5,053 bases of DNA from a virus (taxonomy: Duplodnaviria > Heunggongvirae > Uroviricota > Caudoviricetes). The number at the start of each line of letters is the position of its first letter. The stretch's first letter is position 1. Below the pieces are notes generated by a model. The model made no database searches and had not been told where the DNA came from. It worked only from the letters and a program-made list of their open reading frames with translations. Position numbers and translations under genes: made by a program. Where the stretch lies: the IMG/VR virus record IMGVR_UViG_2778261058_000018, positions 1 through 5,053 of that record; one strand, 5' to 3'. Shown piece after piece: positions 1 to 5,053 of the stretch.

Positions 1-414
1 GCCAGTGACACCATAAAAATGGTTTACACCGGAGACGGGCGCGTGGTGTGGGTTGGTAAGGATGTGACAGGTATTGAACCCCGTAACGCCAGTGTTATTG
101 AAATTCCTGATATTACCGCTAACCGCCGCATTACCGCACCGGGTTACTGGTTTTACCGCAATGATGAATTTGTTTTCGACTACAAACTTAAAGCGGAAGA
201 TGAGCGTGATGCCCTCTTAAAACAGGTCAGCATCATGACCAGCGAATGGGAAAAAGACCTGCTGCTGGGATTAATCAGCGATGAAGACAGGGAAAAACTG
301 AAAGCGTACCGCATTTACGCGAAATCGCTGCAGGCGCTGGATTTCAGCACCATCACTGATAAAACCTCATATAACGCCATCAACTGGCCGGAGCGTCCCG
401 ATGCCGCAGCTTAA
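1..414 (+). CDS. tfa: Tail fibre assembly protein (Tfa-type), 5'-partial; C-terminal ~138 codons in window
   Basis: The reading frame is open from window position 1 (first ATG at 19), so the gene most likely begins upstream. The C-terminal residues ...LKAYRIYAKSLQALDFSTITD...INWPERP follow the conserved C-terminal pattern of lambda Tfa as I recall it (..LEAWKKYRVLLNRVDTST..IEWPAVP..). Stop TAA at 412-414 overlaps the next gene's ATG at 401, suggesting translational coupling. Confidence 0.75.
   Translation, partial: ASDTIKMVYTGDGRVVWVGKDVTGIEPRNASVIEIPDITANRRITAPGYWFYRNDEFVFDYKLKAEDERDALLKQVSIMTSEWEKDLLLGLISDEDREKLKAYRIYAKSLQALDFSTITDKTSYNAINWPERPDAAA
390..393 (+). promoter_or_regulatory. Shine-Dalgarno (GGAG) for stf
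   Basis: GGAG lies 7 nt upstream of ATG 401, inside the 3' end of the upstream tfa ORF. Confidence 0.5.
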
Positions 415-3400
415 AGGTGTGATTAAAACTCCCACGGGTGAACCGCTGGGCGGCGCAACCATTACACTGACCTCCCTGCACAACCGTGCAGGGATTCTGA
501 AAAGTGTTTTCAGCCATGTCACCACACAGAACGGGGAGTATGACTTCCCCGTTCTGCCGGGTGTGTACAGCGTTCGCCTGACACAAAGCACACAGCGCCT
601 TTCAGAAATCGGTGTCATCCGCGTTTATGAAGATTCAGCGGATGGTTCGCTGAATGATTTTCTGGGCGCAACCGATATTGACCTGCGCCCGGAAGCCCTG
701 AAGAAATTCGAAGAGCTGGCGCAACAGGCGCAGCAAAGCGCAGAAAAAGCAGGAGAGCACGCCACCGCTGCTGAACAGGCCCGTCAGGATACAGAAACGC
801 TCGCCGGGGAAATACAGCAGGATGCAGAAGAAATTGCAGGTAATGTGCAGAAAGCTGAAAAGCTGGCCTCTGAAACAAACCAGAATGCCGCCCGCGCAGA
901 GCAGGCCGTCAAGGATGCCGACCTGATAGTCCAGAAAGCGGTCGATAAACTTGGTGAAGCTGCAACGCTGACCGGCGAGGCAAAAGCCAGCGCAGAAGCG
1001 GCAGCAAAAAGCGAGCAGAACGCGAAACAGCACAGGGACGAGGCGCAACGGATAGTCGATGACCTGAAAGGAACCAGCGCCAGCACGACGCAAAAAGGCC
1101 TGGTGCAACTCTGTAGTGACACGGACAACGACAGCGAGGAACTGGCAGCCACACCAAAGGCTGTCAAAACCGTCATGGACGAGACGAAAACAAAAGCGCC
1201 ACTGGACAGCCCGGCGTTCACCGGCACGCCAACCACACCAACCCCACCGGACGATGCAGTCGGTCTGGAAACCGCGAACGCGGCATTTGTCCGCAAACTG
1301 CTTGCCGCACTGGTTGACTCGTCCCCGGATGCCCTGGACACGCTGAATGAGCTGGCAGCTGCGCTGGGCAATGACCCGGAGTTTGCGACAACAATCATGA
1401 ACGCGCTGGCGGGTAAACAACCACTCAGTGACGTGTTAACCGCAATCAGTAATCTGGAAGAACGGGCAGATAATCTTCTGTGCTTTAATCAGGACGGGAA
1501 TGCTTCACTGTCTCCGCTGTCAGAAAAAGCCCGGTCACTGCTGGCACAGGCCACAGTGGAAGCCATGCGTAATGAGCTTGAGCTGAAAAGCGCAGCGGTA
1601 AGGGACATACAGACAGACCTTTACGACAGCACGGAAGGTCGCGTTGCGCTGCCTGGTGCATTTGGTTACGGAATGACGGACGCCGGAGCACGTTCAATTA
1701 TTGCCAGCAATATAGCGGATATAGCCAGAACCGCTCACAACCTGCACCCGGGACGGTATTACACCTTTTCCACGCGAACGGAAGAAACCACCGGGATAAC
1801 AGAAATTATCTGGCTGGATAATGGCTGGGGCGACAAAACCAGCCAGACAGCAACAAAGCTGGTTCTGTTCTTTGGAAAAGACGGACGGATTCTTATGACC
1901 GTTCGTGGCGATAATATCTCCGCCCCGGTCACCTGGACGAATCTGACGCCACAACTGGGCAATGCAGCACAAAAGGATGCGCAGGAGAATATTTACGACC
2001 GCACCGAAGGCCGCCTGGCGATTCCTGGCATGTTCGGTTTCGGGAAAATATTTTCCAGTAGCGACAGAACTGAATTTAAATCAGGGACTGATTTTCTCAG
2101 GTGGGTAAAAACAGCAAAACCCGGTCGTTATACCGTATTTGCGGACACAAATGTGGTGGTACCTGGCATACAGACAAACGGTGTTATTGAAATTATCTGG
2201 CCACAACCTAAAACCAGCCCGAATGATGAGTATGCCTATAAGATAATTATTTATTACGGTGTTAATGGTCATATTTATTATAACCGTTGCGCGGTGTCAT
2301 CAGATGGTGGTTATCTGGTTGGCTGGGAAAACCTGAAGGTTGATGAGGCTTCACTCAGGGCACTGATTGAAGCCCGCGCACCACTGAAAAGTCCGGCACT
2401 GACCGGAACTCCGACAGCACCAACACCGCCGGATGATGCAGCAGGTAATGAAATAGCCAATGCGGAGTTTGTCCGCAAACTGCTCGCTGCGCTGGTTGGC
2501 TCATCACCGGAAGCCCTCGACACACTGAACGAGCTGGCGGCGGCACTGGGCAATGACCCGAACTTTGCGACAACGGTCACTAATGCACTGGCAGGTAAAC
2601 AGCCGCTTAATGATGTGTTAACGGCTGTCAGCCAGATAACACCGGAAGAAAACACGCTGCCTTATTTCAGCGCAGATGGCCGGATTTTACTGGCGCAGCT
2701 GTCAGAAAAAGCCCGCGCATTACTGGCACTGGACACACCTGAAGCCATGCGCACGGAGCTTGAGCTGAAAGCGGCTGCGACGATGGAACCCCAGAGCGAT
2801 ATCCGCGACCGCACACCGGGCAGGCTGGCACTGTCCGGCATGTATGGGTTCGGTCAGGCATTTGCCAGCACCGAAGCCCTGACATTTGACGGACAGGCCG
2901 ATTTTGCTGAATGGCTGAAAGAGGCCACGCCGGGGCGTTATGCGGTCAGCATTGCGGACTCTTCCACACTACTGGCAGGCACCACAAAATTTAACGGCAT
3001 CATTGATGTGATGTGGTCGCCCTTTGATAACGATGAATCAGACACAACGCGTAAATTCAAAATGCTGCTGTGTTTTAACCAGTATTACGAAGGTGAGCAC
3101 AGTATTCATCGCCTGACTTACCGCTGGAGTGGAAACAACTGGAATGCAACAGTAAGCCCTGTCATTTACGACGGCGATTCGCTGGCGTTCTTACTGTCCC
3201 GGACAGCAGGCTCAGGCTCATATTTCAAATACCCGGCAGTGGGTGTTCCGGTGCTGGCTGTTTATCGCGGAACAACTTCCGGGGATAAAGAAATCAAAAT
3301 TGGCCTGGGTGATGTGGTGCAGGGGTCACAACTGGGCGGAGTTAATCTTTCGTGCACAATATCTTCTGCCGGGCCTGGCTCTTACGGTTCAACACCAAGT

Positions 3401-3508
3401 GCAGGAGCAACAGGGTACACTTTTCCGGGGCGTTATATGGCGTTATCCGGGGTCAGGGACTCTTACGGAACAAGCGGTCGTATCTGCCTGTTTGTGCGCA
3501 TCGAGTAA
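401..3508 (+). CDS. stf: Side tail fibre protein, lambda Stf-type, 1035 aa, modular
   Basis: ATG at 401 with GGAG at 390-393 (7-nt spacer); 1035 codons; stop TAA at 3506-3508. The N-terminus (..GVIRVYEDSADGSLNDFLGATDIDLRPEALKKFEEL..) and the segment TTQKGLVQL..LAATPKAVKTVMDETKTKAPLDSPAFTGTPT..ALDTLNELAAALGNDPEFATT..NALAGKQP resemble lambda Stf as recalled. An Ala/Glu/Gln-rich coiled-coil-like shaft spans aa ~105-225. Long uninterrupted ORF with uniform coding character. Confidence 0.9.
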   Translation: MPQLKGVIKTPTGEPLGGATITLTSLHNRAGILKSVFSHVTTQNGEYDFPVLPGVYSVRLTQSTQRLSEIGVIRVYEDSADGSLNDFLGATDIDLRPEALKKFEELAQQAQQSAEKAGEHATAAEQARQDTETLAGEIQQDAEEIAGNVQKAEKLASETNQNAARAEQAVKDADLIVQKAVDKLGEAATLTGEAKASAEAAAKSEQNAKQHRDEAQRIVDDLKGTSASTTQKGLVQLCSDTDNDSEELAATPKAVKTVMDETKTKAPLDSPAFTGTPTTPTPPDDAVGLETANAAFVRKLLAALVDSSPDALDTLNELAAALGNDPEFATTIMNALAGKQPLSDVLTAISNLEERADNLLCFNQDGNASLSPLSEKARSLLAQATVEAMRNELELKSAAVRDIQTDLYDSTEGRVALPGAFGYGMTDAGARSIIASNIADIARTAHNLHPGRYYTFSTRTEETTGITEIIWLDNGWGDKTSQTATKLVLFFGKDGRILMTVRGDNISAPVTWTNLTPQLGNAAQKDAQENIYDRTEGRLAIPGMFGFGKIFSSSDRTEFKSGTDFLRWVKTAKPGRYTVFADTNVVVPGIQTNGVIEIIWPQPKTSPNDEYAYKIIIYYGVNGHIYYNRCAVSSDGGYLVGWENLKVDEASLRALIEARAPLKSPALTGTPTAPTPPDDAAGNEIANAEFVRKLLAALVGSSPEALDTLNELAAALGNDPNFATTVTNALAGKQPLNDVLTAVSQITPEENTLPYFSADGRILLAQLSEKARALLALDTPEAMRTELELKAAATMEPQSDIRDRTPGRLALSGMYGFGQAFASTEALTFDGQADFAEWLKEATPGRYAVSIADSSTLLAGTTKFNGIIDVMWSPFDNDESDTTRKFKMLLCFNQYYEGEHSIHRLTYRWSGNNWNATVSPVIYDGDSLAFLLSRTAGSGSYFKYPAVGVPVLAVYRGTTSGDKEIKIGLGDVVQGSQLGGVNLSCTISSAGPGSYGSTPSAGATGYTFPGRYMALSGVRDSYGTSGRICLFVRIE
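1196..1450 (+). repeat. Intragenic direct repeat copy 1 (Stf collar segment, aa 266-350)
   Basis: In-frame duplicate of 2378-2632. Identical nucleotide runs include tttgtccgcaaactgct, ctgggcaatgacccg and tttgcgacaac. About 70 of 85 residues are identical by my hand count (APLDSPAFTGTPTTPTPPDD... vs APLKSPALTGTPTAPTPPDD...). Confidence 0.7.
2378..2632 (+). repeat. Intragenic direct repeat copy 2 (Stf collar segment, aa 660-744)
   Basis: Same frame, 1182 nt downstream of copy 1. Weaker similarity continues for ~70 further codons after each copy (..LSEKAR.LLA....EAMR.ELELK.. then D.T.GR.AL.G..G.G). Confidence 0.7.
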
Positions 3509-3510
3509 CG

Positions 3511-3514
3511 AGGA
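3511..3514 (+). promoter_or_regulatory. Shine-Dalgarno (AGGA) for the fibre-adjacent accessory ORF
   Basis: AGGA lies 8 nt upstream of ATG 3523, in the 14-nt gap after the stf stop. Confidence 0.5.
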
Positions 3515-3522
3515 AATAAAAC

Positions 3523-4098
3523 ATGAAAATCAGAGCGGTAAAAGGCATCAGAAACGCGCATTATCTCGAAAATGGTGCGGTTGACTGCGAGGTGCTATTT
3601 GAAGGTGAAAGGGAATTCGTCCCGTATACCGCCATGCAGGACGATAGCGCCCCGACAGGCCAGCGCATCTGGGAAGAGTTACAGAGCGGCAAATGGGGCG
3701 AAATCGCCCCGTTCACCGTCACGCCGGAACTTATCGCAGCGGCAAAAGATGCCAAAAAGCGGGAAATCGAGGTGTGGCGCACAGAACAGGAAGCGAAGCC
3801 GTTCACGTTCGAATGGAACGGCCACATCTGGAACGCTGGCCCCGACTCACTGGCTCGCCTTTATCCGGTGGTGATGGCATCAAAATCCGATATGGCATGC
3901 GACGTTATGACGTGGGGTGACGCCGATAATCAACAGGTGAAACTGTCGATACAGGAACTGGAAGAACTGGCGACAGCAATGGCGCAGGCACAGGTCGATC
4001 GCAATGACGAGATTTATCAGCGCCAGCGTGAAATGAAGGAGCAGCTTTCCCAGCTGTCCATACTCGACGAGGTGAGAGCGTTAACTGTCGGTGATTAA
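3523..4098 (+). CDS. Putative tail-fibre-associated accessory or chaperone-like protein, 191 aa; function uncertain
   Basis: ATG at 3523 with AGGA 8 nt upstream; starts 14 nt after the stf stop; stop TAA at 4096-4098. Position directly 3' of a fibre gene and size fit a fibre assembly chaperone. However, the C-terminus (..QLSQLSILDEVRALTVGD) lacks the Tfa-type motif seen in the upstream gene, so it would be a different family (possibly DUF4376-like; cannot be verified without an HMM search). Confidence 0.6.
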   Translation: MKIRAVKGIRNAHYLENGAVDCEVLFEGEREFVPYTAMQDDSAPTGQRIWEELQSGKWGEIAPFTVTPELIAAAKDAKKREIEVWRTEQEAKPFTFEWNGHIWNAGPDSLARLYPVVMASKSDMACDVMTWGDADNQQVKLSIQELEELATAMAQAQVDRNDEIYQRQREMKEQLSQLSILDEVRALTVGD

Positions 4099-4148: not shown

Positions 4149-4212
4149 GGTTTGCATCGGTTGTGATTAAATACCCCCAGCCCTCCGGGCGCTCATGTCT
4201 GGTTATTACACA

Positions 4213-4218
4213 GGGGGA
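4213..4218 (+). promoter_or_regulatory. Shine-Dalgarno (GGGGGA) for com
   Basis: GGGGGA lies 3 nt upstream of ATG 4222. Confidence 0.5.
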
Positions 4219-4221
4219 ATC

Positions 4222-4407
4222 ATGGACTCTGTTCGCTGTAAAAACTGCAATAAATTACTGTTTAAAGGAGGTTTTAAGCATATAGAAATTAAATGTCCTC
4301 GCTGTAAACGTTACATTGTCATATCGAATGCCAAAGAGCATCCCACGGAGCTGTATTGTGGGAAAAGAGAAGAAATCACGCATTCTGACAAAACCCTGCG
4401 TTATTGA
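4222..4407 (+). CDS. com: Com-like zinc-ribbon translational activator of mom, 61 aa
   Basis: ATG at 4222 preceded by GGGGGA at 4213-4218; stop TGA at 4405-4407. Product [61 protein letters not shown] has paired CxxC motifs (C6/C9, C25/C28) and closely resembles Mu Com as I recall it. The track's longer ORF from ATG 4195 has no ribosome-binding site, so 4222 is preferred. Confidence 0.85.
4341..4363 (+). promoter_or_regulatory. mRNA stem-loop occluding the putative mom SD and GTG start (candidate Com-responsive translation initiation region)
   Basis: UCCCACGG (4341-4348) can pair with UUGUGGGA (4356-4363): six Watson-Crick pairs plus two G-U, loop AGCUGUA. The stem includes GGAG 4347-4350 and GTG 4358-4360. 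Confidence 0.4.
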
Positions 4408-5053
4408 GTATGAAGGCCATATTGTCGGCTATGGTTCAAAGGAGCTGCGTGTTGAAACCATATCCTGCTGGCTGGCCCGCACAATCATTCAGACAAAGCA
4501 TTATTCCCGCCGTTTTGTGAATAACTCCTACCTGCATCTGGGCGTATTCAGCGGACGTGATCTGGTTGGTGTTCTTCAGTGGGGATATGCCCTTAACCCC
4601 AACTCAGGGCGCCGGGTCGTGCTTGAAACGGATAACCGGGGCTATATGGAACTGAACCGTATGTGGTTACACGATGACATGCCCCGCAACTCTGAATCAC
4701 GGGCCATCAGCTACGCGCTGAAAACCATCAGGTTACTGTATCCGTCAGTGGAGTGGGTTCAGTCCTTTGCAGACGAACGTTGCGGACGTGCAGGCGTGGT
4801 ATATCAGGCGTCGAATTTTGATTTTATTGGCAGCCATGAAAGCACGTTCTACGAGCTGGACGGCGAGTGGTATCACGAGATAACGATGAACGCGATTAAG
4901 CGTGGAGGGCAACGAGGCGTGTATTTGCGGGCTAATAAGGAGCGGGCCGTGGTACACAAATTTAATCAATATCGCTACATCAGATTCCTGAATAAGCGTG
5001 CAAAAAAGCGCCTAAACACCAAGCTATTCAGGATTCAGCCATACCCGAAGTGA
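4358..5053 (+). CDS. mom: Mom-like DNA modification protein (adenine N6-acetamido/methylcarbamoyl-type modification, anti-restriction)
   Basis: The frame is open from 4316 (TTG) to stop TGA at 5051-5053 and overlaps the 3' end of com in a different frame, which is the Mu com-mom arrangement. Preferred start is GTG 4358 (GGAG 4347-4350, 7-nt spacer), giving 231 aa. Alternatives are ATG 4328 (no SD) or TTG 4316. The translation (..[36 protein letters not shown]...[20 protein letters not shown]...) matches what I recall of Mu Mom. Confidence 0.85.

Follow-up and report, generated by a model that had tools for sequence, protein, structure and literature searches.

Two neck segments and three putative knob modules in a mosaic long tail fibre of a Mu-like prophage

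The window analysed here, a stretch of 5,053 nucleotides, contains the 3' part of a tail-fibre assembly gene (Caudo_TAP/Tfa), an intact fibre ORF and the gene of a DUF4376 protein (Table 1). The first gene is truncated because the source contig begins within it, 2 nt ahead of the window. In homologous loci this Caudo_TAP gene lies upstream of the long fibre gene and comes after a different, shorter fibre gene, its Tfa product is 176–181 aa long and it overlaps the fibre start; the truncated gene most probably encodes the chaperone of that preceding, primary fibre. The homologous loci also carry genes for GP46, baseplate J/gp47 and YmfQ upstream of the fibre and com/mom downstream, and are inserted at varying sites (dhaK, flhA and near pduF). 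The host element is a Mu-like transposable, contractile-tailed (myovirus) prophage and not a lambdoid one. NCBIfam has no family for any of the window's three proteins, and Pfam gives no match in fibre residues 268–1035. In public databases proteins of this fibre family commonly go under the erroneous name 'shikimate transporter'.

The only inverted repeats in the window are 16–18 nt long with 82–88% complementarity, which by our estimate is about the level of chance. One pair, at 363–380 and 3429–3453, flanks the fibre ORF with arms of 16–17 nt at the same complementarity, and by estimate chance alone would yield about three pairs of this kind in 5 kb. No invertase was found among the ORFs of the window, and an invertible segment was rejected.

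Table 1. Genes of the window and segments of the fibre protein (aa, residues of the fibre).
Feature	Position	Strand	Basis or remark
Tail-fibre assembly gene (Caudo_TAP/Tfa), 3' part	1..414	+	Pfam PF02413, E 1.8e-20
Fibre ORF, intact, 1035 aa	401..3508	+	start overlaps Tfa stop by 14 nt
Anchor, aa 1–130, Ig-like virion-attachment domain	401..790	+	Pfam phage_tail_N (PF08400), E 2.8e-26, aa 4–130
Ala/Glu/Gln-rich shaft, ~aa 131–227	791..1081	+	composition and strong AT skew
Phage_fiber_2 repeat, aa 228–267	1082..1201	+	Pfam PF03406, E 3.7e-16
Neck ('collar') copy 1 (C1), aa 265–399	1193..1597	+	carries LDTLNELAAALGNDP core; 72% identical to C2
Knob module 1 (M1), aa 400–525	1598..1975	+	homologous to M2 and M3
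Knob module 2 (M2), aa 526–658	1976..2374	+	hypervariable loops aa 578–590, 601–614, 640–646
Neck ('collar') copy 2 (C2), aa 659–793	2375..2779	+	72% identical to C1
Knob module 3 (M3), aa 794–925	2780..3175	+	homologous to M1 and M2
C-terminal tip domain (T), aa 926–1035, and stop codon	3176..3508	+	distinct from module (hhalign)
DUF4376 protein, 191 aa	3523..4098	+	Pfam PF14301, E 6.8e-16; 14 nt past fibre stop

The N-terminus of the fibre is of the Stf type, as the first-pass annotation had it, but the label 'Stf' does not extend to the chaperone, which is of the DUF4376 type and not a Tfa, nor to the element, which is Mu-like and contractile-tailed. The anchor, of which five types occur among the homologues, matches the PDB sequences 7kjk (XM1 neck 'collar spike' gp40, E 1.2e-9) and 9e7m ('Tail fiber protein', E 9.6e-9), and the shaft can be aligned to the helical region of XM1 gp40 as far as aa 183 and is presumed to form a trimeric coiled coil. 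The Phage_fiber_2 repeat matches residues 99–155 of Mu S (PDB 5yvq, 8ju3). The protein is presumably a homotrimeric long accessory tail fibre. Lambda Stf is located at the tail tip, whereas XM1 gp40, which among solved structures is the nearest homologue of the anchor, is a neck fibre, and by analogy with the latter the fibre might be attached at the virion neck instead of the baseplate.

Two neck copies and three modules are present in the protein as had been proposed. C1 and C2 are 72% identical without gaps across 135 aa (E 1e-53), so that the repeat, which had been described as 85 aa, does occur twice but is longer. The two copies are offset by exactly 1182 nt, with 72% DNA identity over the whole 405 nt and 78% between 1196–1449 and 2378–2631, and the longest exact run shared in this allele is 18 nt. 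C1 is near-invariant in the homologues (entropy 0.10) and matches PDB 9d93 'tail collar fibers gp4', and the core of C2 has 83–85% nucleotide identity to the 'repeated element b2' in gene S of phages P1 and P7.

The similarity of the modules, about 125 aa each, is significant for all three pairs, with 34% identity between M1 and M2 (E 1e-16), 31% between M1 and M3 (E 1e-11) and 37% between M2 and M3 (E 6e-23). A module profile recovers the three copies of the window as well as copies in independent proteins. M1 and M2 abut directly as tandem knobs. All of the motifs by which the modules had been recognized are found at the residues assigned to them, but the first copy of NG-I/V-I-E/D-x-x-W is degenerate and reads TGITEIIW. 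By sequence the module has no relative in Pfam, NCBIfam or solved structures. When profiles of the module and of M3+T were searched against PDB sequences only the neck motif was matched (9d93, 6v8i) and the module was not, and no link at the sequence level to any solved knob was found in this way. The module is absent from phages lambda, Mu, P1 and P2, and is carried by only 13 of 50,697 phage records.

The fold of the modules was assigned from AF2 models of the monomer built on shallow alignments (27 and 54 sequences), which stayed shallow because a second homologue search gave mostly partial proteins. The predicted knob model matches phi812 (9euf), AS12 gp42 (6eu4), R2 pyocin (6cl6, 6cu2), phage K gp144 (5m9f), phi11 gp45 (5efv), Pa193 gp47, T4 gp34 (5nxh), Mu S (8ju3) and NF5 Gp17 (9m7x), and a model of M3+T, in which the module part has a pLDDT of 75–90 and the same order of secondary structure as M2, returns the identical list. 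An antiparallel sheet of 5–6 strands with outer loops, one of which has a short helix, is seen in the model and corresponds to the Knob fold. Knob-like domains listed by Buth et al. 2018 (PMC6116203) include 6eu4, 5m9f, 5efv and T4 gp34, the last given there as 5NXF and here as 5nxh. The modules, which had been called 'tip-like', are therefore better described as predicted Knob folds, known as beads along fibres (PMC6116203).

The last 110 residues form a separate domain, T, that lies outside module 3 (hhalign probability 2.9%). Its PGRY motif had suggested a degenerate fourth module, an idea rejected on the same hhalign value. The T region of the AF2 model is beta-rich with moderate confidence (pLDDT 55–85), and T has no match among PDB sequences. 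Across the family T is always at the C-terminus, and it is hypervariable, with variation peaking at aa 958–967, 981–992 and 1016–1026; it is presumably the distal receptor-binding head. In Alteromonas phages, DUF4376 proteins serve as chaperones of the tail fibre (PMC10579305), and by analogy the protein encoded here is presumed to be a chaperone or cap that helps T to fold. In 8 loci the first 65 aa of this protein change together with the type of T. A chaperone length that tracks the number of knobs, as in Alteromonas, was considered and dropped, as the protein stays at 187–194 aa for fibres of 664–1061 aa with 1–3 knobs.

With the anchor written as A, the neck as C, the knob module as M and the tip as T, all near-full-length homologues that were examined have the order C-M-M-C-M-T (118/118 protein clusters at 100% coverage, from E. 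coli, E. marmotae and Salmonella). Among 5426 complete E. coli genomes, 23 have the same order, including that of E. coli W. An exhaustive profile search of the family (E<=1e-10) gave 85 cluster representatives with three (n=3), two (n~14) or one (n~60) copies of the module, and the architectures recovered include AMT, ACMT, CMT, AMMT, AMCMT and ACMMCMT. Natural fibres exist with the orders A-C-M-M-T, A-C-M-T, A-M-C-M-T and A-M-T, and stand-alone C-M-T fibres of about 410–420 aa are also found. In the same prophage type one allele of 749 aa is A-C-M-T, and another of 777 aa is A-C-M-M-T and is 93% identical to the window fibre up to aa ~579, after which the end differs. The family is combinatorial, with 1–3 knobs and 0–2 necks, and the fibre gene of the window is, on these comparisons, a real and fairly ordinary mosaic with an arrangement common to many E. 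coli and Salmonella prophages.

A recombinational origin of the repeats is supported by the sequence relationships. Simple duplication in situ of a neck and module unit was considered, but C1 and C2 are 72% identical while the adjoining M1 and M3 are only 31% identical, and the closest relatives of each neck (up to 97–99%) sit in other fibres and not in the partner copy; the necks of single-neck fibres reach 97% identity to C2, against 72% for C1. Recombination is therefore preferred. A natural single-neck allele in E. coli C311 has a neck of the C1 type for the first ~220 nt and of the C2 type thereafter, followed by M3-T, and this chimeric neck supports recombination at the neck segment, which acts as an in-frame recombination joint. 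The two necks had also been proposed as a built-in substrate for homologous recombination. The C311 allele agrees with that idea, but in the window allele the substrate is a weak one because the identity is 72–78% and the 18-nt run is below the minimal pairing segments of 23–27 nt for Red-beta and 31–34 nt for RecA (quoted in PMC3945230).

Among the homologues the variation, measured as entropy, is highest in the loops of M2 and in T. M2 and T have 10 types each, found in 31 combinations, and M1 is conserved as essentially one type in 118 homologues. The types of M2 fall to 29% identity inside proteins that are otherwise 79–94% identical, and within M2 the entropy is 0.93 in predicted loops against 0.60 in strands. 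M2 and T are the two hypervariable regions, and they are exchanged independently of each other. The variability of M2 could instead come from relaxed constraint or from cassette hitch-hiking, and not from receptor binding.

Taken together, we read the protein, with a probability of about 0.7, as an accessory fibre with Knob beads and a separate head that was built by recombination between fibre genes and contacts the host by T and the M2 loops. From the N- to the C-terminus it would consist of the Ig-like anchor, the helical shaft, the Phage_fiber_2 repeat, C1, M1, M2, C2, M3 and the head T, which the DUF4376 protein encoded directly downstream would help to fold or cap. The arrangement would have arisen at short conserved joints, namely the core of the neck and the conserved DxTxGRLAxPGxFGxG sequence with which every knob begins, and not by simple local duplication, and additional neck and knob units would make the fibre longer. 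We infer that host contact is most likely made via T, with a second, lateral contact via the variable M2 loops, which would parallel the two-site model of R-type pyocin fibres. A more far-reaching version, which we hold only tentatively and consider doubtful, is a bivalent receptor-binding protein in which M2 and T are independently exchangeable specificity cassettes with a neck and knob spacer between them, so that two surface structures are both needed or either is enough; the neck would then be a universal in-frame adaptor for stacking distal units onto an existing fibre.

An unlikely alternative is that the extra neck and knob units are pure structural spacers that set the length and flexibility of the fibre, with specificity in the C-terminal head alone. 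Within one prophage type the number of knobs does range from one to three in fibres that otherwise resemble each other, C1 and M1 are nearly invariant, and the constant length of the chaperone regardless of knob number suggests that the tip alone is chaperone-matched. A passive spacer is, however, hard to square with ten divergent M2 types in proteins that are otherwise alike and with variation concentrated in the predicted loops, and the pattern parallels that of R-pyocin Knob2, which bound LPS-mimicking ligands in crystals (PMC6116203). Still less probable is the model, developed from the first-pass annotation, that two complete distal halves are fused in one ORF, with the modules as receptor-binding tips of a dual-specificity or branched fibre. 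The stand-alone C-M-T fibres indicate that C2-M3-T is a transferable distal unit, M2 is swapped independently of the tip, and single proteins with two receptor-binding domains have been described (T-shaped fibres, PMC11990801). Nevertheless, C1-M1-M2 has no tip domain and is therefore not a complete distal half, whereas natural fibres with C-M-M carry a T of their own at the end; the modules carry a predicted fold that is common as an internal bead, and M1 is essentially invariant, unlike a receptor-binding tip. For the features of the T-shaped fibres (BASEL, PMC11990801; a Gp12-like and a T5-like RBD and an intramolecular chaperone) there was no match in Pfam, NCBIfam or PDB sequences, and no other second receptor-binding domain was detected with Pfam or PDB sequences. 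Branching is not supported, the fibre being a single ORF with no second attachment domain in it and no adaptor gene in the window. An artefact of sequencing or assembly has a negligible probability. The source contig does break just upstream, within the Tfa gene, which indicates that the fibre region was difficult to assemble, but the ORF is intact, the neck copies with 72–78% DNA identity are too diverged for an assembler to have collapsed or duplicated them, at least 118 protein clusters have the same order, and the independent complete genomes refute it.

The fibre matters since tail fibres decide which bacteria phages or phage-derived delivery particles reach, and engineered Stf chimeras are already in use for reaching chosen bacteria (PMC11338833). 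Natural members of this family show at which in-frame joints, the neck core and the knob starts, distal units can be swapped or stacked, and the M2 loops and the head domain are two candidate regions of specificity for engineering the host range. To a specialist the result is to be expected, as mosaic fibres, duplicated knobs and repeats of neck elements are already documented. A definition of the knob domain would improve annotation, because the module is without a relative in Pfam, NCBIfam or structures and the protein goes under a wrong name.

In the constant part of gene S of phage P1, repeated element b2 is one of two tandem copies (b1 and b2, 222 nt each), a precedent for two neck copies per fibre gene, but there the two lie side by side without intervening knobs. 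P1 changes the distal part of its fibre by Cin inversion, and unlike the invertible S-type fibres of P1 and Mu the window has no invertible segment or invertase; the neck core alone is common with P1 Sc. With lambda Stf and E. coli prophage Stf the window fibre shares phage_tail_N, the helical shaft, the Phage_fiber_2 repeat and the conserved VMDET..KAPLDSPxFTGTP / LDTLNELAAALG neck, which is present twice in the window fibre. It differs in its distal part and in the downstream gene, DUF4376 instead of Tfa/Caudo_TAP, and lambda is a lambdoid non-contractile phage whereas the window fibre belongs to a Mu-like myovirus prophage. Recombination between Stf genes and the fibre genes of prophages has been described (PMC3945230).

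The fibres of Alteromonas phages V22 and A5 have a shoulder, stem, neck, one or two knobs and a head with a DUF4376 gene directly downstream, as here, and natural variants differ by knob duplication (PMC10579305). There the knob duplication comes with an extension of the chaperone, which is constant in length in the present family, and in the window fibre the neck is repeated too; the sequences are unrelated beyond DUF4376. The R-type pyocin fibres (P. aeruginosa PA0620; PDB 6CL5, 6CL6; PMC6116203) are likewise fibres of a contractile tail with tandem Knobs followed by a separate C-terminal head. They are trimeric, as is presumed for the window fibre, and in both the second knob and the domain at the C-terminus hold most of the diversity (Buth et al., PMC6116203). 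There is no detectable sequence similarity, and the window fibre differs in having three knobs, a 135-aa neck between knobs 2 and 3, another anchor and a DUF4376 chaperone. Close in sequence is tail3 of Escherichia phage Rac-SA53 (KU052037, 1061 aa), with the order C-M-M-C and 90% nucleotide identity to positions 881–4038 across 47% of the window. It has another anchor, diverges within M3 and ends in another tip (33% identity in T), but the gene order of Rac-SA53, with a fibre, Tfa, the long fibre and a DUF4376-like gene, matches the locus type of the window.

The 1035-aa fibre ORF carries two copies of a neck or 'collar' segment (C1 and C2) and three copies of a knob module (M1–M3), between an N-terminal anchor (A) and a C-terminal head domain (T). 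The protein is of a well-known kind, a mosaic tail fibre of phages, beaded with knobs and ending in a chaperoned head; the neck and knob arrangement is real, widespread and undescribed. The motifs listed in the first-pass annotation were all found at the residues it had given, and its two collar copies are real, showing 72% identity without gaps (E 1e-53), with the correction that they extend over 135 aa and not 85. On the DNA level they are offset by exactly 1182 nt, as had been noted, and are 78% identical across 254 nt and 72% across 405 nt. The three modules are likewise homologous, with 31–37% identity and pairwise E-values of 1e-11 to 6e-23. An assembly or sequencing artefact, which had been considered as a source of the duplication, is contradicted by the recurrence of the same order in homologues, in complete genomes and in the induced phage Rac-SA53. 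The order neck-module-module-neck-module-tail domain is present in all 118 near-full-length homologues found (79–94% identity, 1032–1086 aa, from E. coli, E. marmotae and Salmonella), and the stretch from C1 to M3 occurs at a coverage of at least 80% in 23 of 5426 complete E. coli genomes, including E. coli W.

Features of the window, with residues of the fibre ORF and mean per-site entropy among 118 full-length homologues
Feature	Window position	Strand	Residues (aa)	Entropy
Caudo_TAP tail-fibre assembly gene (Tfa), 3' part	up to 414	+
Fibre ORF	401–3508	+	1–1035
Anchor (A)	401–790	+	1–130	0.75
Neck C1		+	265–399	0.10
Knob M1		+	400–525	0.23
Knob M2		+	526–658	0.61
Neck C2		+	659–793	0.37
Knob M3		+	794–925	0.41
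Head (T)		+	last 110	0.68
DUF4376 gene	3523–4098	+
com	about 4222–4407	+
mom	about 4328–5053	+
com-mom region	4195–5053
Antisense ORFs (261 and 204 aa)	635–1420	-
Inverted repeats	363–380 and 3429–3453

The exact fibre protein is encoded on the NCBI contig NLOO01000030.1 (assembly GCA_002229605.1), which starts 2 nt ahead of the window and has its first base inside the Tfa gene (L008:1–416 on the contig), so that the primary fibre gene and the remaining prophage are absent from this assembly piece. The com-mom region shows 89% identity to that of phage Mu and forms the prophage end; it is directly adjoined by a truncated dhaK, of which 54 aa remain, followed by dhaL, dhaM and treA (L008:5120–7356). 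Complete E. coli genomes have closely related loci, in which a GP46-family protein, baseplate J/gp47, YmfQ, a short tail-fibre protein and Tfa are encoded upstream, and related elements are found at differing chromosomal sites, adjoining flhA, pduF or an ABC transporter gene. The Mu-like com-mom genes, the upstream baseplate genes and the differing insertion sites together show that the element is a transposable, contractile-tailed prophage of the Mu-like type, in which the fibre ORF is a second, accessory fibre. Phage Mu differs in having the invertible S'/U' genes and gin at the place held here by the long fibre and DUF4376 genes. The 14-nt overlap of the fibre start codon with the Tfa stop suggests that the two genes are translationally coupled. 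The antisense ORFs lie opposite the Ala/Glu/Gln-rich shaft, where the AT skew reaches 0.58, and are most simply a by-product of biased codon content in the coiled-coil region rather than genes. The imperfect inverted repeats (16–17 nt, 82–88% complementary) bracket nearly the whole fibre ORF and were treated as chance, since about three such pairs are expected per 5 kb and there is no invertase.

Sequence searches of Pfam, NCBIfam and PDB with aa 268–1035 gave no match except the neck motif. The structure of M2 alone, predicted from paralogous and orthologous modules aligned together, has a pLDDT of 79 overall and about 90 across residues 30–120, and that of M3 with T one of 72.7; both contain a short strand, a 10-residue helix and four to five antiparallel strands in this order. 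Solved relatives of the models are the phi812 receptor-binding proteins, AS12 gp42, the R2 pyocin fibre (two entries), phage K gp144, phi11 gp45, the Belisarius tailspike, Pa193 gp47, T4 gp34, Mu S and NF5 Gp17. The Knob domain was defined on R1/R2 pyocin fibres, with phi11 gp45 (5EFV), K gp144 (5M9F), T4 gp34 and AS12 gp42 (6EU4) as structural relatives (Buth et al., PMC6116203), and this overlap argues that the modules, as predicted, are Knob-type beads and not the 'tip-like' units of the first-pass annotation. The T domain is distinct (hhalign probability of 2.9% against the module profile) and follows the last module in every family member possessing it. In Alteromonas phages, members of the DUF4376 family chaperone or cap tail fibres (PMC10579305), and the first 65 residues of the DUF4376 protein, the presumed chaperone of T, co-vary with the T type (8 loci).

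An exhaustive profile search with the module among 1.84 billion cluster representatives gave 136 proteins at E<=1e-3, of which 85 reach E<=1e-10; many of the weaker matches are short and multi-repeat (about 36 residues), and these are regarded as spurious. Three modules are present in 3 of the real representatives, two in about 14 and one in about 60. The family is combinatorial: its architectures include AMT (14), MT (9), ACMT (8), CMT (5), AMCMT, AMMT and MMT (2 each) and ACMMCMT and AMCMCM (1 each). Even in this one Mu-like prophage type the fibre gene has several forms, among them those of 1035 aa, as here, and of 749 aa (A-C-M-T, strain 06-00048). Few isolated phages have the module (13 of 50,697 records), but it is seen in Rac-SA53, phiP27, SerU-LTIIb, Avunavirus phages and the jumbo phage Goslar. 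The Avunavirus phages carry it in two adjacent proteins (phage 18-1-2, L012:3449–7052) and Goslar in a P1 gpS-like fibre of >1300 aa (L013:2431–6387); since these are virulent, the module is spread over very different phage types. Across 39% of the window (region 1–4038), 'Actinobacillus phage vB_Apl-pPE4' (PP818812.1) matches the Tfa, fibre and DUF4376 genes at 86% nucleotide identity, unexpectedly close for a Pasteurellaceae phage and due either to a wrong host assignment or to very recent transfer. Many database entries of the fibre family (P0001, P0005, P0006 and many others) are named 'shikimate transporter', evidently an annotation error propagated through NCBI nr. The finding is of practical use for annotation, as the module is without a family model and the protein is widely mis-named.

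A recent duplication of a neck and knob unit was rejected, because M1 and M3, the modules after C1 and C2, are only 31% identical. C2 has up to 97% identity to necks of single-neck fibres, compared to 72% to C1, and C1 is 90–99% identical to necks elsewhere. The C2 core shows 83–85% DNA identity to the 'repeated element b2' of P1/P7 gene S, which in P1 is present as a tandem pair (b1 and b2). The arrangement probably arose instead via recombination between fibre genes at conserved joints, namely the neck and the knob start. The most direct evidence for this is the chimeric neck of the E. coli C311 fibre (759 aa), which has a single neck followed by M3-T: at positions differing between C1 and C2 its bases are C1-specific up to about nt 220 and C2-specific from there on, as would be expected from a C1×C2 crossover, or from the reciprocal event building the long form. 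In some modules (P0132) an M1-type body follows an N-terminal motif of M3 type, so the conserved start DxTxGRLAxPGxFGxG seems to be a second joint. The proposal that the collar copies invite in-frame deletion has to be qualified in the window allele, where their longest identical run is 18 nt and they diverge by 22–28%; minimal efficient pairing segments are 23–27 nt for Red-beta and 31–34 nt for RecA, and at 12% divergence the efficiency of even phage recombinases falls about 100-fold (PMC3945230).

The best solved relative of the anchor is the 'collar spike' gp40 of Vibrio phage XM1 (7kjk, E 1.2e-9), which is bound as six trimers to a myovirus neck (PMC10457771); the anchor domain likewise matches a 'Tail fiber protein' chain of 94 residues (9e7m). 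On the Mu-like virion the fibre may be attached at either the neck or the baseplate. The label Stf (lambda-type side tail fibre) fits the N-terminal half but not the remainder, and nothing suggests the branching that had been envisaged.

M1 is essentially of one type. M2 has 10 types at 85% identity over residues 552–640, where identity drops as low as 29%; T has 10 types as well, and the two are seen in 31 combinations. Variation in the M2 model falls mainly in predicted loops (entropy 0.93) rather than strands (0.60). The recombination joints and the candidate specificity regions can guide choices in fibre engineering. That the extra units are pure spacers is a serious alternative to their binding a receptor. 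In R-pyocin fibres most diversity is found in Knob2 and the C-terminal domain, and two separated binding sites were proposed to set how the fibre is oriented at the surface of the cell (Buth et al., PMC6116203). The distribution in the present family is alike, with M2 and T in the corresponding places, making a two-site mode of binding by analogy plausible, but unproven, for this fibre.
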